In this document: piece after piece, positions 1,874 to 30,041 of the stretch
Position numbering within the stretch: position 1 is the stretch's first letter
Layout of the letters: every line of letters begins with the position of its first letter
Origin: Parcubacteria group bacterium
GTDB lineage: Bacteria > Patescibacteriota > Minisyncoccia > Moranbacterales > UBA11712
Assembly (NCBI GenBank): GCA_041662765.1
Contig: JBAZRT010000001.1
Location: forward strand, 1-47,364
Direction of reading: 5' to 3'
Length of the DNA: 47,364 nt
Notes under the pieces: generated by a model
Told to the model about the DNA's origin: nothing
The model's database searches: none
What the model saw: only the letters and a program-made list of their open reading frames with translations
Translations under genes and position numbers: made by a program

Positions 1874-3694
1874 ATGACTGCAAACGAACTTCGCCAAAAA
1901 TATCTCGATTTTTTCAAAGAAAAAGGGCATGCGATCATTCCTTCGGCGCCTTTGGTGCCGGAAAATGATCCGACAGTGCTTTTCACGACCGCCGGAATGC
2001 ATCCGCTCGTTCCTTTTTTGATGGGTGAAAAACATCCGCTGGGAACGCGGCTTGCCAATGTCCAAAAATGCGTGCGAACTCCCGACATTGATGATGTGGG
2101 CGACAACCGGCATCTCACTTTTTTTGAAATGATGGGAAACTGGTCGCTCGGAGACTATTTCAAAAAAGAAGCGATCGAATGGAGCTTTGAGTTCTTGACC
2201 TCAGAAAAATGGCTTGGGCTTGATCCGCGCCGGCTCTATGTCACCGTTTTCGAAGGCGACGACGATGCGCCTCTTGACCAGGAATCGATCAATATCTGGC
2301 AAGAACAATTCAAAAAAGCCGGGATCGAAGCGAAAGTGGCCGAGAACGGGATCGTGGACTATGAAAAAAGAATAGTCCCGCTCGGGAAAGACGACAATTG
2401 GTGGGGACCGGCAGGGGAAACGGGACCGTGCGGGCCTGACAGCGAGATGTTCTATGATGTTTCGCCGGAAGATGGAGCGGTCGAAGGAAAATTCGGGGAT
2501 CTCAACGGTCCGCGATTGGTGGAGATATGGAATGATGTTTTCATGGAATACAACAAAAAAGCGGACGGAACTTTTGAAAAATTGGTTCAGCAAAATGTGG
2601 ATACCGGCATGGGTCTTGAGCGGACCCTTGTGACGCTGACGGGAAAAGAAAGTGTTTTTGAAACGGATATATTCCAGCCGATAATCAGAAAAGTCGAAGA
2701 AATATCTGGGAAGGAGTACAAAGAAGAAGAAAATCAAAAAGCAATGCGGATCATTTCCGATCACTTGCGAACCGCGACTTTCATGATCGCGGACGGAGTT
2801 GCGCCTTCGAACGTGGAAAGGGGATATATTTTGCGCCGGCTCATTCGCCGCGCCATCCGGCAGGGAAAAATTCTGGGGATCGAAAACAATTTTGCGGCAA
2901 AGATCGCGGAAGTGGTGATCTCTGAATACAAAGACGCCTATCCCGAGCTCGAGCGCGAAACGGAAAAGATCACCGAGGAGCTGAATCAGGAAGAAGTGAG
3001 ATTCCGAGAAACGCTTGAGAAAGGGCTCAAAAAGATAAAAGAAATCATTGCTGAGAGCCGCAAAGAGGAGCAAATTTCCGGAGAAAAGGCTTTTTATCTT
3101 TTTTCCACTTTTGGTTTCCCGCTGGAGCTGACGAAAGAAATCGCGAGTGAACACGATATGGCCGTTGATGAGGAAGGTTTTCACGAAGAATTCAAAAAGC
3201 ACCAGGAGCTTTCAAGGACTGTGTCAGCCGGAATGTTCAAGGGCGGACTGGCTGATGCGGGAGAAAATTCTGCAAAGTTGCACACGGCGACTCATTTGCT
3301 TTTGGCGGCGCTTCGAAAAGTTTTGGGAGAAAATGTTTCTCAAAAAGGATCAAACATCACAGGCGAAAGGCTGCGCCTTGATTTTTCCCATGACAAAAAA
3401 ATGACGCCGGAAGAGATCGAAAAAACAGAAAGCCTCGTGAACGAAGCGATCTCAAAAAATATTGAAGTCAAATGCGCCGAGATGACGCTTGAAGACGCGC
3501 AAAAAACCGGCGCGATCGGAGTTTTCGGCGAAAAATATGGAGAAAAAGTAAAAGTATATTCCATCTATGACTTTTCGACCGAGATCTGCGGCGGACCGCA
3601 TGCAGGATCGACAGGCGAGCTCGGCACGTTCAAGATCACGAAAGAAGAAGCCTCAAGCGCTGGAGTCAGAAGAATCAAAGCGGTGCTGGATTAA
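1874..3694 (+). CDS. alaS: Alanine--tRNA ligase, short form (606 aa) ending after the editing domain
   Basis: The class II AlaRS N-terminus is present (LRQKYLDFFKEKGHAIIPSAPLVP, FTTAGM, QKCVR, GNWSLGDYFK). The editing-domain motifs HTATHLL and CGGPH are also present. Nothing follows the editing domain, so the C-Ala/DHHA1-like part is missing. Confidence 0.9.
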   Translation: MTANELRQKYLDFFKEKGHAIIPSAPLVPENDPTVLFTTAGMHPLVPFLMGEKHPLGTRLANVQKCVRTPDIDDVGDNRHLTFFEMMGNWSLGDYFKKEAIEWSFEFLTSEKWLGLDPRRLYVTVFEGDDDAPLDQESINIWQEQFKKAGIEAKVAENGIVDYEKRIVPLGKDDNWWGPAGETGPCGPDSEMFYDVSPEDGAVEGKFGDLNGPRLVEIWNDVFMEYNKKADGTFEKLVQQNVDTGMGLERTLVTLTGKESVFETDIFQPIIRKVEEISGKEYKEEENQKAMRIISDHLRTATFMIADGVAPSNVERGYILRRLIRRAIRQGKILGIENNFAAKIAEVVISEYKDAYPELERETEKITEELNQEEVRFRETLEKGLKKIKEIIAESRKEEQISGEKAFYLFSTFGFPLELTKEIASEHDMAVDEEGFHEEFKKHQELSRTVSAGMFKGGLADAGENSAKLHTATHLLLAALRKVLGENVSQKGSNITGERLRLDFSHDKKMTPEEIEKTESLVNEAISKNIEVKCAEMTLEDAQKTGAIGVFGEKYGEKVKVYSIYDFSTEICGGPHAGSTGELGTFKITKEEASSAGVRRIKAVLD

Positions 3695-3722
3695 GAAAAT
3701 TTCCATTTTGAAAATTTTAAAA

Positions 3723-3757
3723 GCCATTCGGAAGAGGTTGCCCGAATGGCCTTTTTT
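3723..3757. terminator. Bidirectional hairpin terminator between convergent genes
   Basis: GCCATTCGG (3723-3731) pairs with CCGAATGGC (3742-3750). A T-run follows on the + strand and TTTT follows on the - strand. Confidence 0.65.
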
Positions 3758-3766
3758 GTCCCCAAA

Positions 3767-4093
3767 CTATTTTGAGGAAATAGACAGGAGACGAAGGAAA
3801 GAAATAATACAATTTCCGTTTCCGGCTGGTTTCAGCTGGACATAGATGGGCTGTTCGCGTTCAGCGGCGGCCATCAAGGGAAGTTGGTACAACTCCAGGT
3901 TCAAAATGTTTTGGATGAAGAATGTCCCTACTCGATCTGACACCGCCAGGGAATCTTCGCCGATGCCGGCAACCAGGCCGGCAATTGCAAAGGGCTTCTT
4001 GAGCTCGTCGGTCGTTTGGCTCCCGGCGTTGGCCGCCGGACAGGCGAGACCAAAAAGGAAGACAAAAACGAGAATAAACAAGGTGTTTTTCAA
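3767..4093 (-). CDS. Small secreted hypothetical protein (108 aa)
   Basis: It has the N-terminal signal peptide MKNTLFILVFVFLFGLACPAANA. No recognisable domain was seen. Confidence 0.5.
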   Translation of the reverse strand: MKNTLFILVFVFLFGLACPAANAGSQTTDELKKPFAIAGLVAGIGEDSLAVSDRVGTFFIQNILNLELYQLPLMAAAEREQPIYVQLKPAGNGNCIISFLRLLSISSK

Positions 4094-4176
4094 CTTTTCT
4101 ATCCTCCTGGTCGCAAGATGCTTTTACTATGGAGAAATATCCGCAATTTGTCAAAATATTCGCGATGCGGCAAAGA

Positions 4177-4833
4177 TCATTGGTTTTTCAAATATTTCTT
4201 GAAGAGATAGAGGAAATAGCTGAAAAACAGAAGAAGAAGGGCGATCCCGCCGGCAAAAAGAACATAGTTTTTTTGGACCAGCGCCTGTCCGGCATAGGCG
4301 GTGATGAAAGCGAAAATTATTTCGCCCAGCGTGATCGTGAGAAAATATTTGAGAAAATTGTAGCGCAAGGTTCCAAGGGTATAATTGGGCACTTCGGACG
4401 GCATCGACATAATGAAAAAGAAAACCAGCTTGAACTGGGCGTTCGGCGGGATTTTTTTGCGATAATAGTCGATTTTTTCAAGCGACGCAAATCTTTTGAG
4501 GATCGGATTTCCCGCGTAGTATCCGATGATATAGCTCAAAACGTCTCCGATCATCCAGCCGGCCAGAAGATAGAGCGCCACGGGGTTGCTTCCCCAAACG
4601 ATGACGGCGATCGGCACCAGAGGCGCGGACGAAAAAGAAGAAAGCATCGTGGACAAAGTTCCGAGACCAATAAAAACAAAAATGCTCAAAAACTCGTGTT
4701 CTCGGGTCAGATTTTCAAAGAGAGGCACGATTTTCGCGAAAAACGCCTGGAATTGGACAGAAGACCAGATCAAAAATCCGATGAAAAAGAAAGAAATAGT
4801 GATGGCAATATTTCTTTTGCTGAAGAGTTTCAT
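4177..4833 (-). CDS. DedA / VTT (SNARE-associated) family membrane protein
   Basis: The protein is polytopic and hydrophobic. Its core APLVPIAVIVWG...LLAGWMIGDVLSYIIGYYAG..ILKRF is typical of the TVP38/DedA family. Confidence 0.75.
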   Translation of the reverse strand: MKLFSKRNIAITISFFFIGFLIWSSVQFQAFFAKIVPLFENLTREHEFLSIFVFIGLGTLSTMLSSFSSAPLVPIAVIVWGSNPVALYLLAGWMIGDVLSYIIGYYAGNPILKRFASLEKIDYYRKKIPPNAQFKLVFFFIMSMPSEVPNYTLGTLRYNFLKYFLTITLGEIIFAFITAYAGQALVQKNYVLFAGGIALLLLFFSYFLYLFKKYLKNQ

Positions 4834-4889
4834 TGAATATGATTATACAGCAAAAAAAATCCAAGAGCAATTGGAGTTTTTGGCGAATA

Positions 4890-4924
4890 TGAAAAGGCCG
4901 TCCGGTGGTGCGCCGGGCGGCCTT
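4890..4924 (-). terminator. Hairpin terminator downstream of the small minus-strand gene
   Basis: AAGGCCGTCCGG (4894-4905) pairs with CCGGGCGGCCTT (4913-4924) in a 12-bp stem. On the - strand it is followed by TTTTC. Confidence 0.5.
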
Positions 4925-4974
4925 GGGGTCTTTTTGTTTATAATATTTTCTGGAAAGAACTGCGAGGCGATGCC

Positions 4975-5208
4975 TCAAACGGCAGCGATTTTCAGGGGAA
5001 TCGCCCCTTTGAGGCGATATCTGGATCCGTACTCTTTTCTCAACACGGCATGGGCTTCTTTTTGGGCAACTCTCCTGGCGTCGCGATTTGTCTTGCACTC
5101 AGCCAGTTCGGCGATCTCGAGGTCGAGCCGGTGCTCTTTCCTGCTCTGGCCAGGGCGAGTAAAACGAACCAGGACCACTTTGCCGAAACGTTGTTCAGTC
5201 TCACGCAT
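4975..5208 (-). CDS. Small basic hypothetical protein (77 aa from the ATG at 5208; the ORF extends to 5388)
   Basis: The locally GC-richer ORF reads MRETEQRFGKVVLVRFTRPGQSRKEHRLDLEIAELAE... A GAAGG lies about 11 nt upstream of the internal ATG. The longer N-terminal extension is covered by a 15-bp inverted repeat, so the start is uncertain. Confidence 0.4.
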   Translation of the reverse strand: MRETEQRFGKVVLVRFTRPGQSRKEHRLDLEIAELAECKTNRDARRVAQKEAHAVLRKEYGSRYRLKGAIPLKIAAV

Positions 5209-5537
5209 GACGGGTGCCTTCTTGGTAGTGTGGTGGAATTCTGTGATTTCTATGCTAGCAAATTCCTTGATTTTTGTCCATACCAACGGCAGCGAAAATT
5301 TATTTGACCGCTCCTCACCATTTTTTGTCTTGCAGCTATTGAAAAATGTATTACAACATAAAAATGGTGAGGAGGTGAACTTATCCACAGCTCCCTGGTT
5401 TGCATTCCGCGTTTTTTTTTTGCTTTGATGGGTATAGAAATAAAAACGACAAGCGAAAGGGACAAATCAGGAGGTCTTTTTTCTTTGTGCAAAAATGAAA
5501 TAATAATGCTGATTTGTGAAATACGGTGCAAATCGAA

Positions 5538-13173: not shown

Positions 13174-13557
13174 GCTCGCTCTCCTAAAAATAAAATAACT
13201 GCATTTCTATTGGCGCTATTATATCACAGAGATAAGTCATTGTCAAATTGACGGCCGGAAATTCTTCGCATTTTTTCACAATTCGGAATTTAGCCAATAT
13301 GAACCAGGAAGGGTATGATGAGGCTAGTCGTCTAAATAATAAAAAACATCAACAGTTCTGCTTCCAGCGGGGCTGTTTTTTTGATTTGCGAATATTGGAG
13401 CGGATTTCAGATTTGTCAAAATTGCATAATGGCTTATATAAGGCAAAATAATTGTTTTTTCGCTTTTTTTACTTGACTTATTTAAAAAGGAGTGTTACAA
13501 AAATACGAAGTCCTTTGACAACTTCATGTTATAAATTCCCATAAGGATGGTGCAAAT

Positions 13558-14649
13558 ATGCGTCTATCACGGCTTTTGGATTGGAGGTGGTGGTTCGGCC
13601 TCAGGCCGAAATTTGCCATCGAACCGCCGGTCGCGAAGTATTCAATTACTATTGTCGTGCCGGCCTACAACGAAGAAGATTCAATAGGCGCCACCATCAG
13701 CAACCTGAAATTGCAGACGGTTCCGATTGAGGAAATCATCGTGGTTGATGATTGCTCCTCGGATGGAACCGGCGAAATTTCCAGGGAAATGGGCGTCACC
13801 GTTATCCGGACTCACAAAAATCAGGGATCAAAGGCGATGGCCCAGAATTATGTCATTCCGCAAATCGTGTCCGATCTTATCGTGACAATTGATGCGGATA
13901 CGATTCTGGCGCCGGATGCCATTGAGAAAACATTGCCCTGGTTCAACAGCCCGAAGACGGCTTCCGTATGCGGGTTTGTTATTCCGCAAAAAGTGGAAAC
14001 CCTTTGGGAAAGAGGGAGGTTTATCGAATACGTATTTGGCATATCGCTCCATAAGAGAGCCCAGCAGAATATAGGGCTGGTTATGGTTTCCTCCGGCTGT
14101 TTTTCCGTCTTTCGCACGGAACTGCTCAAGATGATGGGCGGTTTCGACGCGAGGACAATGGCCGAGGATATGGATCTCACTTGGAATTTCCTGCTCGAGG
14201 GATATGAGATCTATTGCGAGCAGACGGCCTATTGCTATCCGTTCGATCCACCGACGCTCAAAATATTCGTCAACCAGATCGACCGATGGTACCGGAGCTT
14301 TTTCCAGAACGTTTCCGTTCACAGCTTCAGAAAAAACAAGGGGCTGGGAATCATGATCTATGGATACCTCCTGGAACCGGCACTGGCACCGATTCTTGCC
14401 GTTGCGTTTCTCACGACGATGAAGTGGAATTTCTGGTGGCTAATCATGCTGGCCGCCGCTATCGATCTGACGATCGTGGCGATCCCGTGCCTCATCAAAG
14501 GCGCGGTTACCGGCATGACTGGAAAAGTTTTGACCTCCTTGCCGGCTTATTGGGTCATAAGATTTGTTAATATCTATGTCTTTTGGCGGTCCTTCTGGAG
14601 AGAGTGGATCATCAAAGACAAACTCAACAGCTGGAACAAGGGTCACTGA
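13558..14649 (+). CDS. Processive family-2 glycosyltransferase (PgaC/IcaA/NodC/cellulose-synthase-like synthase)
   Basis: Motifs seen are VVPAYNEE, VVDDCSSDGT, TIDADT (DxD), TMAEDMDL (ED) and VNQIDRWYRSF (QxxRW). C-terminal TM helices are present. The gene is GC-rich relative to its flanks. Confidence 0.85.
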   Translation: MRLSRLLDWRWWFGLRPKFAIEPPVAKYSITIVVPAYNEEDSIGATISNLKLQTVPIEEIIVVDDCSSDGTGEISREMGVTVIRTHKNQGSKAMAQNYVIPQIVSDLIVTIDADTILAPDAIEKTLPWFNSPKTASVCGFVIPQKVETLWERGRFIEYVFGISLHKRAQQNIGLVMVSSGCFSVFRTELLKMMGGFDARTMAEDMDLTWNFLLEGYEIYCEQTAYCYPFDPPTLKIFVNQIDRWYRSFFQNVSVHSFRKNKGLGIMIYGYLLEPALAPILAVAFLTTMKWNFWWLIMLAAAIDLTIVAIPCLIKGAVTGMTGKVLTSLPAYWVIRFVNIYVFWRSFWREWIIKDKLNSWNKGH

Positions 14650-14683
14650 AGTCTCAACCGCGAAATCAAAGAAGGAAAAAGTT

Positions 14684-15793
14684 ATGAGAAAGTGGATGTT
14701 GGTTTTGGCTTTGGCGGCCGCGTTGATGATTCCATCCGCGGCCATGAGCGCTCCGGCTCCGAAGGAAATTATCTTGGGAAAATCGAAGATCATTGTGCCG
14801 CCAGGCGCTTTGGTCGGCGCTCAGGTTGACCGGGTCACCCGCGATACCACTCTGCCTGATGGCAGTGATCTCAAGAACGCCTATCCCTTCCGGGTTGTCA
14901 CCGACAAGTCCGGGCTGGTTACCTACATGGAAGGCCGCCTGGCCGGCCAGCTGATTGATTACGCCAAAGTCCAGGTCGTAGGCCTGGGACCGGCGTATGC
15001 CAAATTAGTGGGCGAAACGGGCGACTTCTACACTGAAGACGGCGCCGGGAATTTCAAGTTCAGAGTGGATCCGTCCAAACTGAACTATTCCTCGGTGCTG
15101 TATGCCGACAAGCGGTCTTTTGCCGTGATGATCGACACCCACGGTTTCAACGCTGTGGCCGCACCGGCAATTCACCTGGCTCAATTGTCCAAGAAGAAAC
15201 TCAGCCTGGTGATTGCCTGCATGGACCTGCCTTCGAAAGCTGAAGCGGCCCTGTTTCTGGCCCAAAACGGCATCAACTGCTACGGGCCCTGCGACCTTTT
15301 CGGATCCCAGATCGTCGGCTACAAGAAAGACAATCCCAATGCCGCGACAGTCCTGGGGACCGCCCCTATCCGCAAGCTCAAAAAGGGCGGAGCGGTGATT
15401 GGGAATCAGTCGGTGCGTATCGCGCTGGCTGAAGAGATCGTGGTCCAAAAGACCGACAATGCCAAATATCCGGACCAGTACTGCGACGCGCCCTACAACT
15501 ATTTTCGTGCCGTGCAGGAAAAGCTGGGACTGGCCTTGAAGCTCACTCCCGTTGTGGCCACCATCGGCCAGACGGATAAGTTGGTCGCCAAAGCCAAAGA
15601 AGTCGGCGCCCAGGTGATTGGAGTGAGAGTCCTGAACGAAAAGGACGCGGCTCCGATCGCGGCGTGGCTCAAAGAAAACCCCAAAAATCGGGCCATTCTT
15701 TTTCACTCGGCTGCTTATGAGCCGGGCTATGACCTGTTTTTCCAATTCCCGAAGCAGACCAGCTTTGGGGACCTCAATCCACAAGTTCTGTAG
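14684..15793 (+). CDS. Secreted/periplasmic hypothetical protein (369 aa)
   Basis: The ATG at 14684 is preceded by GAAGGAAAAAG. The signal peptide is MRKWMLVLALAAALMIPSAAMSA. No recognisable motif was seen, and codon usage matches the island. Confidence 0.65.
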   Translation: MRKWMLVLALAAALMIPSAAMSAPAPKEIILGKSKIIVPPGALVGAQVDRVTRDTTLPDGSDLKNAYPFRVVTDKSGLVTYMEGRLAGQLIDYAKVQVVGLGPAYAKLVGETGDFYTEDGAGNFKFRVDPSKLNYSSVLYADKRSFAVMIDTHGFNAVAAPAIHLAQLSKKKLSLVIACMDLPSKAEAALFLAQNGINCYGPCDLFGSQIVGYKKDNPNAATVLGTAPIRKLKKGGAVIGNQSVRIALAEEIVVQKTDNAKYPDQYCDAPYNYFRAVQEKLGLALKLTPVVATIGQTDKLVAKAKEVGAQVIGVRVLNEKDAAPIAAWLKENPKNRAILFHSAAYEPGYDLFFQFPKQTSFGDLNPQVL

Positions 15794-15809
15794 TCAGAGG
15801 GGGTAAACG

Positions 15810-16295
15810 ATGAAGAAGGCAAGAAAGTGGCAATTTGTTGCGTTGGCGTTTGCGGTCATGTTCTTTCTGGCCGGCAGTGTTGCCATCGCAGGGGAAACTT
15901 ATCCCCAATTTCCCTGGTCCACCTGGGGCGAGGTATCCCAAACCATCGCGGGCAAGGATAATCCCGGGTTCAAAGCGGATGGGTATCTCGAGCAAGGTAT
16001 CGATTGGACGAAGTTCGGCAGCAGCTCGAAGTTCAGTCCGGTCCTCAATACCTTCGTGGGTTTCCGCTTCACCGCCAGCAATCACCCTGAGTACTGGTGG
16101 GACAACAAGCTCGGGCCTTGGTTTGGCGCCAAGCTGAAGTGGGATGTAAACCCCTATCCCGGAGCCTGGGGCCAGATCGCCCTCGGCATTCGCGGCGAGT
16201 ACTATACGTATTTCAGTACCGTCCGCGATCGGCCCTACAGCAACGACCTTCGCTGTGTCGCCTTTCTCCAATGGTCTTTTGGCGGCAAGTGGTAG
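15810..16295 (+). CDS. Small outer-membrane beta-barrel-like protein (161 aa)
   Basis: It has a signal peptide (..FFLAGSVAIAG). Amphipathic strands alternate along the sequence (FVGFRFTAS, WFGAKLKWDV, IALGIRGEYYTYF, RCVAFLQWSF). The C-terminus FGGKW is aromatic, as in OMP beta-signals. Confidence 0.55.
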   Translation: MKKARKWQFVALAFAVMFFLAGSVAIAGETYPQFPWSTWGEVSQTIAGKDNPGFKADGYLEQGIDWTKFGSSSKFSPVLNTFVGFRFTASNHPEYWWDNKLGPWFGAKLKWDVNPYPGAWGQIALGIRGEYYTYFSTVRDRPYSNDLRCVAFLQWSFGGKW

Positions 16296-16310
16296 GCGGG
16301 GGAGGCAGGC

Positions 16311-16910
16311 ATGTACAAGGGTAAAAGCGGATTATGCGGAACGGTAGCGCACGTGCTCCTCGCCTGTCCCATCCTGGCGGTGGTTCTGGGCGTGGGAGGT
16401 GCGGCACTTTACGTGAAATCTTATATCCGCGGGCAGCCTCCTCCTTATACGGTGGAGGTAACCGCCCAAAAGATCATGGCAGATCCTGCTTTCCAGGCCA
16501 AAGTTCGGGAGACTGAAAAAGTTCCCGGAGCCAGGGAGCTGACTGATGAGGCCGAAAAGGTCTTTCAGGGGATCGTTATGGTCGAAAGCGGAGACAAGGA
16601 GATCGGCGTCCATCCAGACGGCGTATCCCACGGTCCGGCGGGTCTCACCCTGCCGGCTCTCAAAGACGTGCATCGGCTGGTCTGCAATTCGAGCGAAAAG
16701 CTCGATTATCAGGCCATCCTGAAAAATCCGGTGGAGAGCAGGAAGTTTGCCAAGCTCTACTATCTGGAAATGGTGCACCGCTTTGGGGACGTGAAAACCG
16801 CGGCCATTGCCTATCACCACGGACCCACCCGGGTCTCGCGGTGGATAAGGCAGCACAAGTCTCTGCCGGATAGCTACTGGAACAAAGTCCAGGAGGCGAT
16901 GGGCGACTAA
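16311..16910 (+). CDS. Membrane-anchored SLT-domain lytic transglycosylase
   Basis: An N-terminal TM segment is followed by MVESGDKE (catalytic E-S), HGPAGLT and AIAYHHGP (AYNxGP-like). The SD is GGGGGAGG. Confidence 0.7.
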   Translation: MYKGKSGLCGTVAHVLLACPILAVVLGVGGAALYVKSYIRGQPPPYTVEVTAQKIMADPAFQAKVRETEKVPGARELTDEAEKVFQGIVMVESGDKEIGVHPDGVSHGPAGLTLPALKDVHRLVCNSSEKLDYQAILKNPVESRKFAKLYYLEMVHRFGDVKTAAIAYHHGPTRVSRWIRQHKSLPDSYWNKVQEAMGD

Positions 16911-16954
16911 CGGCCGTCCAAGAAAAGAGGAGGGAAAAGAAGCAAAGAAGTTCT

Positions 16955-16987
16955 GGCGGCATCACGCAATTCGATGCCGCCTTTTTT
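16955..16987 (+). terminator. Rho-independent terminator
   Basis: GGCGGCATC (16955-16963) pairs with GATGCCGCC (16973-16981) and is followed by TTTTTT. Confidence 0.8.
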
Positions 16988-17007
16988 AAACTTAAAAAAA
17001 CGCACAC

Positions 17008-17036
17008 TTGACAAATTGAAGACAATATATTACGAT
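17008..17036 (+). promoter_or_regulatory. Sigma70-like promoter (TTGACA-N17-TACGAT)
   Basis: The -35 lies at 17008-17013 and the -10 at 17031-17036, upstream of the BamD-like gene. Confidence 0.55.
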
Positions 17037-17115
17037 TAGCTGTTCGTTGAAATCGGCACAACGCTTAGAAATGGCAATTTTGCCAATAACGTTGAAAGAA
17101 TAGGAGATATTGCTC

Positions 17116-17742
17116 ATGACTAAGGTGGGGAAAATCAGGTTTTTGGCCGTGGTCTTTGCTCTGCTTCTTTGCTGGGGCTGTGGCGGGATGAGTTTCAGCT
17201 CCAAGCCGGAAGCGTCCAGCACTGAAGTCTTTGGTCCGATGCCAGCGGAACAGCTTCTCAAGATGGCCGAGGACCGCTTCAAGGCTGGCGACTATTTGGC
17301 CGCCATGCGCGCCTATGACGCGTTCGAAAAGGATCATCCCGGGAGCCAGCTCATGCCATTTTGCGTTTTCGGCCGTGGTCTCAGCTATATGCACGAAATG
17401 GAGACCATCGACCGCGACCAAGCCATGTGCCGCAAAGCCGCTGAGCAGTTTCAGCGGGTCGTGGACCGGTATCCGGATTGGAAGTACACGGCTGATGCGA
17501 AAGCGCATCTCAAAAAGTGCCGTGGCAACCTGGCGGAACACGAATTTTATGTGGGCTCCTATTATCAGCGGACCGGGCGCTATCGGGCCGCATTGGTTCG
17601 CTACCAGGGACTTGCCCGGGATTATCCGGAGTTCACCAAAGGAGCCGAAGTCAAAAAAGGCATCGCGGAATGCGAAGCCGAACTGGCCAAGGCGCCAAAG
17701 CCAAAGGGATTGATCGCCCAGCTCTTCGATGCCCAGTGGTAA
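17116..17742 (+). CDS. BamD/YfiO-like TPR outer-membrane lipoprotein (208 aa)
   Basis: The AGGAGA SD precedes the ATG at 17116. A lipobox-like LLLCWGC-GG is present. TPR-like repeats include AEDRFKAGDYLAAMRAYDAFEKDHPGS, AAEQFQRVVDRYPDWKY..DAKAHL and EHEFYVGSYYQRTGRYRAALVRYQGLARDYPEF, a typical BamD signature. Confidence 0.75.
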   Translation: MTKVGKIRFLAVVFALLLCWGCGGMSFSSKPEASSTEVFGPMPAEQLLKMAEDRFKAGDYLAAMRAYDAFEKDHPGSQLMPFCVFGRGLSYMHEMETIDRDQAMCRKAAEQFQRVVDRYPDWKYTADAKAHLKKCRGNLAEHEFYVGSYYQRTGRYRAALVRYQGLARDYPEFTKGAEVKKGIAECEAELAKAPKPKGLIAQLFDAQW

Positions 17743-17771
17743 AAGACAAGAAGTTCTTTTTGAGCAAAACC

Positions 17772-17807
17772 GAACCCCGATGCCGAGCATGGGGGTTCTT
17801 TATTTTT
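17772..17807 (+). terminator. Rho-independent terminator
   Basis: GAACCCC (17772-17778) pairs with GGGGTTC (17792-17798). An inner ATGC/GCAT helix is present, and CTTTATTTTT follows. Confidence 0.7.
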
Positions 17808-17882
17808 CCTGCTTTTTTTGGCGGGTTGTTTTTTTGGTTGATTTTTGATAGAATATTTCAAGTCGAAGCAATATTACAACAA

Positions 17883-18153
17883 GCCGTTGTAGCTCAGCTG
17901 GCAGAGCAACTCCATGGTAGGCAACTGCCCATAGGCGGAGAAATCCGTCAATGAATCCCGAATCACGGTTAAAGGCCCTAGCCGGGTCAAGACCGTAGCG
18001 CTTTCTTGGCGCTCGAACGACTGACAAGGGGAGCTAAATTTGTCAATTGGCAAATATGTTCAAGATACAGTCTAATCCTCTTATATGGTTGAATAACAAA
18101 AAAAGAGGTATAAATGAAGGAGTAGGTCCGCGGTCCGAATCCGCGCAACGGCT
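17883..18153 (+). tRNA. tRNA-Thr(GGU) interrupted in the anticodon loop by a 198-nt intron
   Basis: The 5' exon is GCCGTTG-TA-GCTC-AGCTGGCA-GAGC-A-ACTCC-ATGGT (17883-17918). The 3' exon is AA-GGAGT-AGGTC-CGCGG-TCCGAAT-CCGCG-CAACGGC-T (18117-18153). Acceptor, D, anticodon and T stems all pair. The spliced loop is AUGGUAA. Confidence 0.75.
17919..18116 (+). ncRNA. Group I-like self-splicing intron (no ORF)
   Basis: The 5' exon ends in U and the intron ends in G. The helices found are:
- P2: GGCGGA-GAAA-TCCGTC (17934-17949)
- P3: TCCC (17956-59) with GGGG (18028-31)
- P4: ACGGT (17965-69) with ACCGT (17992-96)
- P5: GGCCC/GGGTC
- P6: AGCGC/GCGCT (17997-18013)
- P7: GACTG (18019-23) with CAGTC (18068-72)
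- P8: ATTTGTC-AATT-GGCAAAT (18038-55)
- P9: CCTCTT/AAGAGG (18077-18108)
The order P3-P4-P5-P4'-P6-P7-P3'-P8-P7'-P9 is the group I topology. Confidence 0.6.
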
Positions 18154-18180
18154 CAAGGATAATTTTTTATTCGCAAAAAC

Positions 18181-19068
18181 ATGTCCGGAAAAAAAATATC
18201 GATATTCCTCGCTGTGCTGATCGTTATCATTGTCGGATTTTTGTGGTATCAAAAAGGGAAGGGCAAAAAAAATCAAAATACCCAGTCATCCGCGAAGCTG
18301 TCGTCTCTCAAGAATTCTCCCGCAGGGGACAACAGCGCGGCTGACGCGAATTCCGATCAGGCTATGGAGGATTTCGACGCGCAGTGCACGAACGGCCAAT
18401 GGGTGAAGATCGCCGATGTGGAAGGGGAAATGACAACTGCCAAAGGAGTGGTGCAAGCGGTCGATCCGGAAAATACCGCTACTGCGGCTTTCCAAAGTTA
18501 TCGAAATTATCTCGACGGAAGCGAGAAAATCGCGCTTGTTGATCCAAATGTGAAGACAGATACTGATGATAGCGATGTGGATCTTTTCCAGACCAGGGAA
18601 GTGGAAGTTCAGGGAGTGCTCGGCCAAGGCGCGGCAAAAGAAGCGAAAGTTTCCCAGATCAGATGCGCGGGCAAAGAAACGGACAAAAACGCGGCGGACG
18701 ATCGCACCAAAATTTTGAACTATATTTCGGCGAACATAAGCTCGATTGCTCCGGAAAAAGCTCCGCAGAAAAATTGGGTAGCTTCCTCGGTGGTCATTTT
18801 GGATGAAAAGGATGTTTATGTCGATTATTATGACGCTATCGAAGACGATGAAAACAGTGATCCGGAACTGGATACAACGCACAGGGTTCTGCTGGAGATC
18901 GCTCCCGGAGGGAATGGCAATTTCAATGCAAATGTGCTAGCCTATTGGGTCCCGGGTGAAGAAGATTTTGTGCTCAAGCAAGGGAATGACAAATTCAAAA
19001 ATCTCGATGAATTTTCTCTGCCGTCGTATTCCTATGATTCCGAGAGCAATTCATGGTCGAGAGACTAA
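18181..19068 (+). CDS. Membrane-anchored hypothetical protein (295 aa)
   Basis: It has an N-terminal TM segment (ISIFLAVLIVIIVGFLW) and an acidic extracytoplasmic region. No recognisable domain was seen. Confidence 0.55.
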   Translation: MSGKKISIFLAVLIVIIVGFLWYQKGKGKKNQNTQSSAKLSSLKNSPAGDNSAADANSDQAMEDFDAQCTNGQWVKIADVEGEMTTAKGVVQAVDPENTATAAFQSYRNYLDGSEKIALVDPNVKTDTDDSDVDLFQTREVEVQGVLGQGAAKEAKVSQIRCAGKETDKNAADDRTKILNYISANISSIAPEKAPQKNWVASSVVILDEKDVYVDYYDAIEDDENSDPELDTTHRVLLEIAPGGNGNFNANVLAYWVPGEEDFVLKQGNDKFKNLDEFSLPSYSYDSESNSWSRD

Positions 19069-19103: not shown

Positions 19104-19259
19104 ATGTCGCAAGAAAATCTCGTCAAATTCAAATGTGAAGTTTGCAAATCTGTGAATTATCATTCCACCCGCAACAAAAAGAAGATCAAAGAAAAGATCG
19201 CTCTCAAGAAATTTTGCAAGAAATGCCGCAAACACACGCCGCACAAGGAATCGAAATAG
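19104..19259 (+). CDS. rpmG: 50S ribosomal protein L33 (51 aa), below the ORF-track cutoff
   Basis: MSQENLVKFKCEVCKSVNYHSTRNKKKIKEKIALKKFCKKCRKHTPHKESK shows the L33 pattern CxxC..NY...KN....L.LKK.C..C.KHT.H.E.K. Confidence 0.85.
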   Translation: MSQENLVKFKCEVCKSVNYHSTRNKKKIKEKIALKKFCKKCRKHTPHKESK

Positions 19260-19291
19260 CAGTCAATATCTGTATTTTGCCTGAATAATAT

Positions 19292-19365
19292 GCGGGCATA
19301 GTTAAGTGGTATAACAGTGGTCTCCAAAACCACAGTCGGGAGTCCGATTCTCTCTGCCCGTGCCA
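19292..19365 (+). tRNA. tRNA-Trp(CCA) with encoded CCA
   Basis: The cloverleaf is GCGGGCA-TA-GTTA-AGTGGTA-TAAC-A-GTGGT-CTCCAAA-ACCAC-AGTC-GGGAG-TCCGATT-CTCTC-TGCCCGT-G-CCA. It aligns closely with E. coli tRNA-Trp. Confidence 0.9.
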
Positions 19366-22232: not shown

Positions 22233-23477
22233 ATGCGTTTTTATGACCCCGTCAAAATCGCCTACAAAAATCTTATCGCGGCCAAGTTCCGCTCTTTTTT
22301 GACTATTCTCGGGATTGTGATCGGAATTGCGTCCGTGATAATAATCATCGCCATCGGATCCAGCGCCCAGGAACTGATCCTGGACCAAGTAAAAGGCGTC
22401 GGATCCAATCTTATCGGAGTCTTGCCGGGCGCTTCCGAGGAGAAAGGCCCGCCGGCGAGCGCGATGGGGGTCATCATTACGACCCTCAAATACGACGACC
22501 TCAAGGCCATTCTTCAGAAGAGCAATGTTCCCAACGCGGCTGACGGAACGGCTTATATCAGCGGAAACAACACGGTCCAATTCGAAGACAAGGACAAGAA
22601 TTTCACTTTTCAGGGAACGACAGCCAGCTATATAAATGTTGAGAACGCTGAAATAGACAAGGGGCGGTTTTTCACCAAGGAAGAGGAAACGAGTTTGTCG
22701 CGTTTCGCCGTGCTTGGGTCGGAAGTGGCCTCTGATCTTTTCGGGGAAGGCGGCGACTCGGTCGGAAAAAGAATAAAAATCGGAAAACAAAATTTCGAAG
22801 TGATCGGAGTTTTCAAGAAACGCGGTTCAACTGCTTTTTCCAATCAGGACACGACTATTTTTATGCCTCTTTTCACGGCTCAAAAAGTGATGCTTGGGGT
22901 GGACTATCTCAACTTCGTCCGCGTCAAAGTCGATAGTGAAACGAATATCGATCGGGCAAAAGCGGACATTATCATGACTCTTCGCGATCAACACAACATC
23001 AAGAAAGCGAGCGACGATGATTTTTCGGTGCGCGATCAAAAGGCCGGACTTGACGCCATCACGAATATCACCGGAGCGATAAAATATTTTCTGGCGGCTA
23101 TCGCGGCAATTTCTCTTCTCGTCGGCGGAGTGGGAATAATGAACACGATGATTATTTCCGTCAACCAAAGAATTCGCGAAGTGGGTCTTCGCAAAGCCAT
23201 CGGAGCCAAAAACTCTCTGATCATGCTCCAGTTTTTGGTCGAGTCGATCTTTGTGACGCTTTTGGGCGGCGTGATTGGGATCATTATTGGGGTTCTGGTG
23301 ACTTTTTTGGCGGCGCTGATTATTCAAAAGCTGGGATATCATTGGCCGTTCATTGTCACGATATCGTCGATTTTGCTTGCAACCGGAATTTCCCTGCTCA
23401 TCGGAGTATTTTTCGGAATTTATCCGGCGCGCAAAGCCGCGAAGCTCAATATCGTGGAAGCGTTGAGATATGAGTAA
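22233..23477 (+). CDS. ABC transporter permease, MacB/FtsX type (paralog 1)
   Basis: It starts with a MacB_PCD-like N-terminal TM segment and a large extracytoplasmic domain. The C-terminal FtsX domain reads LLVGGVGIMNTMIISVNQRIREVGLRKAIGAK. Confidence 0.85.
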   Translation: MRFYDPVKIAYKNLIAAKFRSFLTILGIVIGIASVIIIIAIGSSAQELILDQVKGVGSNLIGVLPGASEEKGPPASAMGVIITTLKYDDLKAILQKSNVPNAADGTAYISGNNTVQFEDKDKNFTFQGTTASYINVENAEIDKGRFFTKEEETSLSRFAVLGSEVASDLFGEGGDSVGKRIKIGKQNFEVIGVFKKRGSTAFSNQDTTIFMPLFTAQKVMLGVDYLNFVRVKVDSETNIDRAKADIIMTLRDQHNIKKASDDDFSVRDQKAGLDAITNITGAIKYFLAAIAAISLLVGGVGIMNTMIISVNQRIREVGLRKAIGAKNSLIMLQFLVESIFVTLLGGVIGIIIGVLVTFLAALIIQKLGYHWPFIVTISSILLATGISLLIGVFFGIYPARKAAKLNIVEALRYE

Positions 23478-27758: not shown

Positions 27759-30041
27759 ATGGTCAAAAATCTGTTAGCCACTGTGCTGCTCGGCCTTTCG
27801 CTGTTTTTCTGCAGCGGCCAGGCTCAAAGCGCAGACCCGATTCCCGGAGATTCCGGTGAGAAGGGTTGGTATAGGTGCTCCGGCGGCGGAGGAGAGGCTT
27901 CGACAGCCGCTTCCGCCGAAAAGTCTGATCCTGGTGTGGTCCGCGAGTGGAAAGATGCCCGCGACGGCCAAATTTATCAGGAAAGACTGAACCAGGAGAG
28001 CGGGCAGTTTTACACGGTCCGCAAACCCAACAAATGGGAAAGCGCTAAGAACGAAGATAGCGACAACCCGCGCAGGTACATCCAGCCTAACACCGACCAG
28101 CCCAAGCGAGTCATCTCGAGTCGCGCTCCCAAAAAGGGTGAAACCTGGACGGTGGGTGTGGTCAGAATGCCCAAGGCCATGCCAATTGCGGCCGGCAAAG
28201 GTCTCTTCTGGGGCGTTGGCCTCAACAAGGCCGAAAACAAGCTGGTTAAGGTGTCTTTGCTTCCGTTGGAAATGAAAGCGGATGACAAGAGCGACACCCG
28301 TCCGGCTGTTTTCATCGCCGAGGGCCAGCTGCCTGAGAACGCTCCGATCATTTGGGGCGACCGCTATCCCGAAAAAAGATGGTGGAAACGCATGGGCGAT
28401 GCCTATGGCGAAACCGTCATCTGGAACCGGGACGGGCAGCATTTCAAGCTGCTCAACGGGTTTTTTGATGAGCCGGAACGACTTGCCAAGTTTGTCGATG
28501 TTTACGGCGGCAAGATTCCGACGTCTAAGGCTCACATGGTCCAAGTGCCGGCCAACGAGGTTTTTCAACAGGCCAAGAAGCTTGGGTACAAAAACCTGAG
28601 CAATGGGGATATGTTGATGCCCGGCGCGGATCTCTATGATCTGCGCGAGCGGCATAGCCAGATTCCGGCGATCTACTTTTACCAGCGTCTCATGAAAACG
28701 GGATTCCCTACTTTCACGGTCCCGTTTGCCGCCGCCTCGTTTGGCATCGGCTCTGGAATACAGGTTGCCTCGGCATTGCTCGATACTCGGCAGTTCGATA
28801 TCGAGTGCCTCTCAAACCAAAAAGGCATGGAAGCCTTCGAGAGGATGCAGAGCAATCTGAAGAGCTCGTCTGCTCTGGCAAGTGTGACTCCGAGATATTC
28901 CGCCAAAGCGGGGATTTCGAGAGTTGCGAATGCACCTCCAGTCGATGACTGCGGGCGCATTCTGAGCCAGCTGACGGCTGGTGCATACCCAATGGGTTAT
29001 GCGGCCGACGAACTGCGGGAAATGCGGTGGCTTTATGACCGCGAGATCCGCAATGAAATGTTCGCCGGCGGCGGTTGGTCTAGTAGCAACGTGCCTCCTG
29101 GTACTGTTGCGACCAACAGTCGCGCAGCCAATTTCCATTGGCGTCCCTTCGGCGTCTATGATGCCGATAGTGGGTTCTGGTTTGGACCCACGTATGAGTA
29201 CGGCAACTGGGACTGGCATTATCGGTCCCGGGGATGGAACGGCGATGGTGAAGGCAGGCGCTGGGCTGCAGGGCTCTCATCTGTCTATACCACCAAAACG
29301 TCCTGGGGCGGGATAAAGTGGTATAACAAAGCCCTGTTTGCCCGCTTCTCTGACGGCCAGATCCATCGGGCGGAAGGCATCTTCGGCACCTATGTCGATG
29401 CCTGGCACAAGCCGCTCTGGCAAAACAAGAGTGAAAGCGTCCAACTCTTCTCCGGCTTTAGTGGAGGAGTAGAAGTGAATACCGGATCCGGATTGCTGGC
29501 GGACTTGAGTCCGACGGTATTGCGCATCAGGGTCTGCGGGGCGGACGCGCTTCGCATAGATCCGGGCATCCGGTTCCTCATGCCCTGGCCTGCAAAAACG
29601 AACTTGCTGGGCTGGGGCGTCAAAGTGATGGCGCTCGACGGAGGGATAGGCTGGTACGCCAATTTCTTCCCGGGCCACCTGAACTTCAAAACCTTCGGCG
29701 GATCTCTGCCGAGGCTGATCAACTTTGCGCGGCGCATTCAGGCCTGCGGAATCAAGGAAATACCGTTCCCGCCGGCCGATATTTGTCCGCCCACCCCGGT
29801 TGTAAAGGTGCCAGAAGCGCCTTGTCCGCCGAAAATCGTGCCGCCGCCTCCTCCGGCCCTCGAAACGCCGCCGGTGAAAATAAAGAAAAAGCGGCCGAGC
29901 AAGAAGAAGCTGCGCCTCCGGTGTCCGGTAGAAAAGCCGGAAATGCCGATCCAGGTGCCGCCTTTGCCTAAGCTGCAAAGCAAACTGTCGCTCCCTGATG
30001 GCCATCAGGCGAGCCGGCAAGTACCACCCAAGGTAATGTGA
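27759..30041 (+). CDS. Large secreted hypothetical protein (760 aa) with a W/G/Y-rich C-proximal region and a proline-rich basic tail
   Basis: The signal peptide is MVKNLLATVLLGLSLFFCSGQAQSA. The W/G/Y-rich stretch reads FHWRPFGVYDADSGFWFGPTYEYGNWDWHYRSRGWNGDG..GGIKWYN. The tail reads PPADICPPTPVVKVPEAPCPPKIVPPPPPALETPPVKIKKKRPSKKK. Composition is GC-rich. Confidence 0.65.
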   Translation: MVKNLLATVLLGLSLFFCSGQAQSADPIPGDSGEKGWYRCSGGGGEASTAASAEKSDPGVVREWKDARDGQIYQERLNQESGQFYTVRKPNKWESAKNEDSDNPRRYIQPNTDQPKRVISSRAPKKGETWTVGVVRMPKAMPIAAGKGLFWGVGLNKAENKLVKVSLLPLEMKADDKSDTRPAVFIAEGQLPENAPIIWGDRYPEKRWWKRMGDAYGETVIWNRDGQHFKLLNGFFDEPERLAKFVDVYGGKIPTSKAHMVQVPANEVFQQAKKLGYKNLSNGDMLMPGADLYDLRERHSQIPAIYFYQRLMKTGFPTFTVPFAAASFGIGSGIQVASALLDTRQFDIECLSNQKGMEAFERMQSNLKSSSALASVTPRYSAKAGISRVANAPPVDDCGRILSQLTAGAYPMGYAADELREMRWLYDREIRNEMFAGGGWSSSNVPPGTVATNSRAANFHWRPFGVYDADSGFWFGPTYEYGNWDWHYRSRGWNGDGEGRRWAAGLSSVYTTKTSWGGIKWYNKALFARFSDGQIHRAEGIFGTYVDAWHKPLWQNKSESVQLFSGFSGGVEVNTGSGLLADLSPTVLRIRVCGADALRIDPGIRFLMPWPAKTNLLGWGVKVMALDGGIGWYANFFPGHLNFKTFGGSLPRLINFARRIQACGIKEIPFPPADICPPTPVVKVPEAPCPPKIVPPPPPALETPPVKIKKKRPSKKKLRLRCPVEKPEMPIQVPPLPKLQSKLSLPDGHQASRQVPPKVM

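Follow-up and report, generated by a model that had tools for sequence, protein, structure and literature searches.

A probable small group I intron after the anticodon of tRNA-Thr(GGU) in a Parcubacteria group genome, and its family across Patescibacteria

The split tRNA-Thr(GGU) gene and its surroundings

The window, that is, the whole stretch of DNA analysed here, is the entire 47,364-bp contig of a Parcubacteria group MAG. With introns allowed, ARAGORN called a tRNA-Thr(GGU) gene spanning 17883-18154 and interrupted at position 37 by an intron of 198 nt, and no second tRNA-Thr(GGU) gene was found by this search within the 47 kb of the window. Run without introns, the program called tRNA-Trp alone (19292-19365) and missed the split gene. 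The gene consists of the following parts:

17883-17918, + strand: 5' exon of tRNA-Thr(GGU), with acceptor, D arm, 5' anticodon stem and loop bases 32-36, ending in anticodon GGU (ARAGORN and match to uninterrupted orthologues)
17919-18116, + strand: 198-nt ORF-less insert, very probably a group I intron (family profile, covariation, MFE fold)
18117-18153, + strand: 3' exon of tRNA-Thr(GGU), starting with A37 A38 (ARAGORN and orthologues; exon 2 begins AA in 111/111 relatives)

The insert lies at anticodon-loop position 36/37, directly after anticodon base 36, and no credible ORF was found inside its 198 nt. An original prediction made from the sequence had proposed such an ORF-less interruption of the anticodon loop and had suggested a tRNA call on the manually spliced sequence. 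When 17883-17918 and 18117-18153 are joined, ARAGORN indeed calls the resulting 73 nt as tRNA-Thr(GGU). The joined exons fold into a perfect cloverleaf, whose acceptor has 7 bp (GCCGTTG/CAACGGC) and whose anticodon arm consists of the stem ACTCC/GGAGT and the loop AUGGUAA. From this join, the spliced junction is predicted to read ...CUCCAUGGU/AAGGAGU... in RNA and CTCCATGGT/AAGGAGT in DNA, the slash marking the splice point.

Further evidence for the split comes from contigs encoding homologues of the downstream ORF (18181-19068), which were compared with the window. Four related genomes (L001, L003/L004, L005 and L006) retain the order tRNA-Thr, downstream ORF, rpmG, and in all four the tRNA-Thr(GGU) gene is uninterrupted. 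L001 and L003/L004 have the anticodon arm CTCCATGGTAAGGAG, the same as in the spliced window sequence, whereas the arm reads TTCCATGGTAAGGAA in L005 and L006. Since the orthologous gene is uninterrupted, the window carries a precise 198-nt insertion, and the orthologues agree with ARAGORN on the predicted split. At a syntenic Moraniibacteriota locus (L071), where the downstream ORF is 42.6% identical, the intron is present, so that its distribution at this one orthologous locus is patchy.

About 40 nt upstream of the window tRNA-Thr resemble the upstream region of L001, and the GC content falls from 54% to 44% some 60-80 bp upstream of the gene. The region 13500-17900 forms a 54% GC block within a 44% GC contig and encodes a GT2 glycosyltransferase, an SLT transglycosylase and a BamD/YfiO-like outer-membrane lipoprotein, a set that is unusual for a CPR bacterium. 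A terminator-like hairpin (17808-17835) closes the block just upstream of tRNA-Thr, and relatives have different genes there; the block may reflect an island transferred next to the tRNA, or else a mis-join. No Pfam match was obtained for a second GC-rich ORF (27759-30041), in a stretch of 57% GC (28001-30000). On the other side of the split gene, rpmG (L33) is followed by tRNA-Trp (19104-19365). The arrangement tRNA-Thr...tuf/rpmG-tRNA-Trp-secE is a conserved bacterial neighbourhood that the window order echoes, with a membrane protein and a MacAB-like transporter downstream of tRNA-Trp in place of secE-nusG. Among intron carriers, the genes around the tRNA-Thr vary from one to the next, with no linked cofactor gene.

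A family of introns at one site

Relatives of the insert were sought by scanning one genome per GTDB species with the pattern ACGACTRACAA-N(18-48)-AAGATAYAGTC, which covers the P7 5' strand and J7/3, followed by J8/7 and the P7 3' strand. The scan returned at least 120 loci, with about ten chance matches estimated for the pattern. Among the matches listed, 115 lie in tRNA genes called split by ARAGORN, and four more loci run off the end of the available sequence but are hit by the family profile with E values of 1e-32 to 1e-41; a further match, L037, was set aside as a chance occurrence of the P7/J8-7 pattern. The intron is present at the same site in more than 100 other public genomes (at least 119 relatives).

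Carriers among the matches listed are almost all Patescibacteria MAGs. Paceibacterota carriers include Yanofsky-, Kaiser-, Wolfe-, Jorgensen-, Nomura-, Taylor- and Vogelbacteria, and others are Moraniibacteriota, Komeili-, Uhr-, Davies-, Doudna- and Peregrinibacteria/Peribacteria, with many labelled Saccharibacteria and a few under other labels. One carrier stands outside Patescibacteria: a family member lies in the tRNA-Thr(GGU) gene of Niastella populi CCTCC AB 208238, a cultured Bacteroidota isolate (L075, 5196-5450, - strand, on a 300-kb contig), where it adjoins a tyrosine-integrase ORF (4264-5331, - strand).

All 111 loci that were re-parsed read GGT/intron...G/AA, splice to a tRNA-Thr(GGU) and start with GCC; the last base of the 5' exon (U-1), the last intron base (omega-G) and A37 are the same in all 111. 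ARAGORN in intron mode named 55 of them Arg(GCG), His(GUG), Pro(GGG) or Leu(GAG) (within L020-L139; e.g., L029 80-302 and L022 4685-4912), a boundary artefact caused by a G or T at the start of the intron. Across the family, the first base of the intron may be A, G or U, while exon 2 always begins with AA. Only a 36/37 boundary keeps A at position 37, which settles a one-base ambiguity in the window.

With the window copy left out of its construction, a family profile finds 17921-18116 with nhmmer (E=2.8e-41) as its sole match in the window. Furthermore, 86 columns are conserved to 90% or more among the other 110 members, and the window copy matches every one of them and so shows no decay. The original prediction had set against itself an intact second tRNA-Thr(GGU) together with decay at this locus; neither a second gene in the 47 kb nor a single deviation at the 86 conserved columns was seen. 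Intron and exon distances correlate weakly (Mantel r=0.12, p=0.001), too weakly to separate vertical from horizontal spread. As judged from these sequences, the Thr(GGU) intron is a large family at one site across Patescibacteria, patchy among close relatives.

Several split tRNA genes occur per genome in Patescibacteria carriers. Nine canonical introns that score 63-103 bits with the covariance model R1, described below, share contigs with family members (L121 6222-6364, L066 1953-2107, L085 2144-2298, L083 2792-2936, L038 7702-7823, L096 7235-7367, L105 982-1125, L028 2940-3077 and L040 2727-2885). They sit in genes that ARAGORN calls tRNA-Met/fMet(CAU), Leu(CAA), Tyr(GUA), Ser and Asp.

Secondary structure and comparison with canonical models

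The structure was derived from the window and tested on a 111-sequence alignment, A3, in which the window is included. Its elements are as follows:

17916-17929, + strand: P1, G34 G35 U36 (17916-18) with the internal guide GCC (17927-29), loop 17919-26; pairs GC, GC and UG invariant in 111/111
17930-17953, + strand: P2, 17930-32 and 17934-39 with 17944-49 and 17951-53; 9/9 pairs compensated, 88.6% paired
17957-17959, + strand: P3 5' strand CCC, pairing with 18028-18030; 99.7% paired, both-side changes in 5-7 sequences per pair at 3/3 pairs
17965-17996, + strand: P4/J4/5/P5/J5/4, with P4 (17965-70/17991-96) enclosing J4/5 AAA, P5 (17974-78/17984-88) and J5/4 AA
17997-18013, + strand: P6 hairpin, 17997-18001/18009-13; 4/5 pairs compensated, 94.5% paired
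18017-18023, + strand: P7 5' strand A(C)GACUG with bulged C18018, pairing with 18068-18073; perfectly complementary and invariant, partly set by the search pattern
18028-18030, + strand: P3 3' strand GGG, crossing P7 to give a pseudoknot
18031-18061, + strand: P8, 18031-34 and 18038-44 with 18049-55 and 18058-61; 11/11 pairs compensated
18062-18073, + strand: J8/7 AAGAUA (18062-67) and P7 3' strand CAGUCU (18068-73); matches the Rfam consensus AAGAUAUAGUC
18075-18115, + strand: P9.0 (18075-76 with 18114-15) enclosing P9 (18077-82/18103-08); P9 6/6 pairs compensated
18116, + strand: omega-G, the last intron base; G in 111/111 re-parsed relatives

Over the 111 sequences, the 54 pairs are standard in 93.0% of cases; shuffling the partners lowers this to 77.0%, and sliding the 3' partner by 1-3 columns lowers it to 30-43%. 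Kinship among the sequences inflates the shuffle statistics, so that the slid-partner controls are the fairer comparison. Changes on both sides were found at 38 of the 54 pairs. The MFE fold alone yields P2 and P4-P9 (-66 kcal/mol, z=-3.41). This covariation upholds the order P1-P2(GAAA)-P3-P4-P5-P6-P7-P3'-P8-P7'-P9 that the original prediction had given. Exact helix limits required correction: P1 comprises only GGU/GCC, and CAU (17930-32) belongs to P2. The predicted wobble between U17918 and G17927 at the 5' splice site was likewise recovered, as UG in every one of the 111 family members.

Helices differ in how they speak to the fold. The invariance of P1 is fixed by the anticodon, and P4 is 100% paired and almost invariant (n=111), whereas P5 has compensatory changes at four of its five pairs. 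For P7, the search pattern imposed the invariance of 18062-18072, and U18073 alone is conserved independently; because the pattern largely fixed this helix, its conservation is not judged from the 111-sequence set. A metagenome scan requiring a non-G at the last P7 pair returned one locus, L140, in which that pair varies (GACUU...AAGUCU, a compensated U-A) and P3 is CCG/CGG, also compensated. Complementarity and this one compensated variant are what point to P7, and the pair G18019-C18072 beside the bulge is presumed to be the guanosine-binding site. P9.0 is 97.7% paired, as GC in 66 and AU in 39 sequences at one pair and CG in 60 and UA in 39 at the other, with about 40 double changes per pair. 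Pairing of the P9.0 type is specific to group I introns.

A tertiary contact is also suggested. L2 is a GAAA tetraloop in the window (17940-43) and GNRA in most family members, and P8 contains an asymmetric internal loop, UAA (18035-37)/AU (18056-57), that resembles the 11-nt GAAA-tetraloop receptor. A C-UAA-R/UAUG asymmetric P8 loop occurs in 30 of 42 members with a GAAA L2 and in none of the 69 others (Fisher 1e-17), whereas CC:GG in P8 accompanies a GUAA/GCAA L2 in 38 of 69 members and GAAA in 1 of 42 (Fisher 2e-9), p-values that common ancestry inflates. Such co-variation is expected for a tetraloop-receptor contact. In the Azoarcus intron, a GNRA L2 is presumed to dock on P8, and the L2-P8 co-variation seen here supports a likeness between the two.

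General models of group I introns see little of this. At the gathering threshold, Rfam matched only tRNA-Trp in the window and nothing on the intron. With permissive settings, Intron_gpI (RF00028) reached 10.2 bits (gathering score 50; E=5.9) over 17978-18093, in an alignment convincing only at the J8/7-P7 stretch UCAAGAUACAGUCUAA, and it gave no match on 14 relatives. The original prediction had made its reading depend on a group I covariance-model hit; this rule proved too strict, as Intron_gpI stays below threshold, yet the comparative evidence is strong. A second source of models was the 26-sequence structural alignment of bacterial tRNA and tmRNA group I introns that serves as the Williams seed (Williams, 2020; bioRxiv 10.1101/2020.01.27.920355). 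An nhmmer sequence profile of this alignment gave no match on the window intron. R1, a covariance model rebuilt from the trimmed core of the seed alignment and different from the author's own model, gave the window intron 10.4 bits (E=0.3), a noise-level score that ranked third among its matches in the window.

Run on 100 loci, R1 matched 22 Thr(GGU) introns at E<0.01 and about 28 more at E<1, with 13-30 bits; every match extends along the whole model and falls on the intron. In addition, it recovered 13 further introns at 50-103 bits, nine of them inside tRNA genes that ARAGORN names Met, Leu, Tyr, Ser or Asp; the other four had no split-tRNA call. Recovery of these 13 canonical introns indicates that the model works, and its lower-scoring matches to the Thr(GGU) introns mark the family as related to the classical tRNA introns of bacteria but divergent from them. 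The lengths of the junctions are at most one base off the Williams consensus, and P7 reads A(C)GACUG/CAGUCU against the consensus G(A)GACUA/UAGUCC, with two pairs changed on both sides. The group I reading of the original prediction gains support from the covariation, including the P3 pseudoknot and P9.0, from the invariant U-1, wobble G and omega-G, and from the core-model matches to 22 relatives.

Other motif matches were mostly put down to chance. The stretch 22871-22949 (- strand), inside a MacB-like gene, carries an GAGAUAGUCCA motif like J8/7-P7 and was the top but non-significant match of both canonical models (E 0.2-0.4), which is treated as chance. A scan of viral contigs with the 16-mer TCAAGATACAGTCTAA gave 12 matches, eleven of which look like chance in coding DNA; L013, from the same scan, may be an unrelated group I intron.

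Interpretation and relation to known introns

Altogether, 17919-18116 is very probably a group I intron, small and ORF-less, of the type found in bacterial tRNA genes (IC3-like), inserted between U36 and A37 of tRNA-Thr(GGU) in a Parcubacteria/Moranbacteria-type genome. Its fold, splice-site bases, P9.0 and exon junction are established by comparison among the sequences, and the chemical steps are inferred from established group I introns. By this analogy, transcription of the gene would yield a 271-nt precursor, in which the anticodon GGU and the intron guide GCC would form the 3-bp P1 with a U-G wobble at the splice site. The P3-P9 core would then fold, with P3 and P7 making the pseudoknot and L2 docking on P8. 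Free guanosine bound at G18019-C18072 of P7 would attack after U17918, and P9.0 would set omega-G18116 into the same pocket. Finally, the freed 5' exon would attack after G18116, giving a mature tRNA with the loop AUGGUAA and releasing the intron. P1 and P3 have only 3 bp and P10 is weak, so that the intron may require assistance to splice efficiently in vivo.

This last point leads to a variant of the group I reading, in which the fold is accepted but splicing in vivo requires a protein chaperone or maturase, or serves as a control point, e.g., guanosine-nucleotide sensing that tunes the tRNA-Thr supply. The short helices and weak P10 speak for it, as does the retention of a single site across a phylum with reduced genomes, which could mean a function beyond selfish persistence. 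However, the differing neighbours of carriers offer no linked cofactor gene, and similar small tRNA introns, such as that of Azoarcus (205 nt), self-splice efficiently in vitro (PMC13168695). We consider this variant unlikely. The view that the insert is a dead relic and the locus a pseudogene is more improbable still: the sub-threshold Rfam score would fit it, but the exons form a perfect cloverleaf, the copy is free of deviations at conserved columns, helices are maintained by compensatory change in 111 genomes, and the 47 kb hold no second tRNA-Thr(GGU) that could replace it.

Two remaining alternatives have hardly any probability. A protein-spliced archaeal/eukaryal bulge-helix-bulge intron at the canonical 37/38 position could be entertained from the window copy, where the insert and exon 2 both begin with A and the boundary slides by one base. 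It is contradicted by the family comparison, which fixes the boundary at 36/37: a 37/38 boundary would place G or U at position 37 in many family tRNA-Thr genes, U-1 and omega-G are invariant, and the conserved structure is a group I core with no bulge-helix-bulge motif. An assembly artefact or chimeric join at the tRNA, to which the nearby fall in GC content might point, is hard to reconcile with exon halves that match each other and their orthologues, an upstream flank like that of L001, and more than 100 independent assemblies in which this intron occupies this site.

With the group I reading preferred, the closest parallel is the IC3 intron of Azoarcus sp. BH72 tRNA-Ile(CAU), which also interrupts the anticodon loop just after the third base of the anticodon, is about 200 nt long (205 nt) and ORF-less, and forms a short P1 using the anticodon itself. 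The Azoarcus intron has P2-P9 and P9.0 and self-splices in vitro (PMC13168695). The two differ in host tRNA, in P3 (3 bp in the window against 6), in J6/7-P7 (CGA-A(C)GACUG in the window, GUA-G(A)GACUA in Azoarcus) and in P4 (ACGGUU against UCGGCG), and a core model that includes Azoarcus scores the window at noise.

Introns of this general kind have been described before. One preprint raises the bacterial tRNA intron settings from 4 to 21, and its seed includes Rba53.Thr.5Ug, at 36/37 after GGU, as well as Thr.3Ug, Thr.2Ug and the tRNA-Leu setting Leu.3Ug (Williams, 2020; bioRxiv 10.1101/2020.01.27.920355). Group I introns in CPR tRNAs have been mentioned (PMC8172020), and tRNA introns in CPR genomes have been noted (PMC8694215). 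The list of four tRNA settings in the original prediction is superseded by these 21, one of which is at Thr 36/37. Its statement that it knew of no tRNA-Thr example and none in such genomes does not stand either, as both kinds had been reported and at least 119 other public genomes carry the intron. The family as such, phylum-wide, at one site and invisible to Rfam, may be new.

The Thr.5Ug class (Rba53) shares with the window the gene type, the site, a 5' exon ending in GGU, U-1 and omega-G. It differs in a canonical GC-rich core (AAAUUCGGGGAAA, GUAGAGACCA, AAGGGAUGGUCC), and a profile that includes Rba53 misses the window intron, which is therefore either a lineage of its own that occupies this site or a branch that has diverged strongly. 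Canonical IC3 introns of other Patescibacteria tRNA genes share contigs with the family, but score 50-103 bits against 13-30 bits for the Thr(GGU) introns. The cyanobacterial and plastid tRNA-Leu(UAA) intron is small, occupies one site phylum-wide and is sporadically absent, as in the Thr(GGU) family. It differs in its site (34/35) and its tRNA, and it is readily found by Rfam-type models; moreover, its ancient vertical inheritance is documented, whereas intron and exon distances in the Thr(GGU) family are only loosely related. We advance it only tentatively, as a doubtful rather than a favoured proposition, that the intron is a distinct, old group I lineage at tRNA-Thr(GGU) 36/37 across most Patescibacteria classes, with outliers such as Niastella and a standing comparable to that of the cyanobacterial tRNA-Leu intron. 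Under that proposition, the lineage would have stayed undescribed because the Rfam model is blind to it and tRNA finders miss the gene or name it Arg(GCG) or His(GUG).

The useful part of these results is the family picture: a phylum-wide set of introns that is invisible to Rfam and miscalled by ARAGORN. For annotation, tRNA-Thr(GGU) will look missing or misnamed in many CPR genomes, which affects statements on CPR tRNA sets and genome completeness. For RNA biology, it supplies over 100 naturally occurring versions of a minimal ribozyme, about 160-240 nt long, in which P1 and P3 measure 3 bp each, and because the Niastella populi carrier is cultured, splicing could be tested there. For evolution, one site that is phylum-wide yet patchy makes a good case for weighing ancient inheritance with loss against repeated gain by reverse splicing.

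A further observation concerns L140 (metagenome contig Ga0180732_1008899, 35% GC), where at least seven related introns lie within 2 kb (2180-4148; nhmmer E 2e-6 to 3e-18). They lie downstream of an ORF that reads as helicase-like, and no tRNA was found there. The exon ends in GGT at both 5' splice sites that were read, and the single exon with an intron on either side measures 48 nt and, with the preceding stretch, reads as a hydrophobic peptide. The locus may be a protein gene with an unusual density of introns, and a phage is a possible source.
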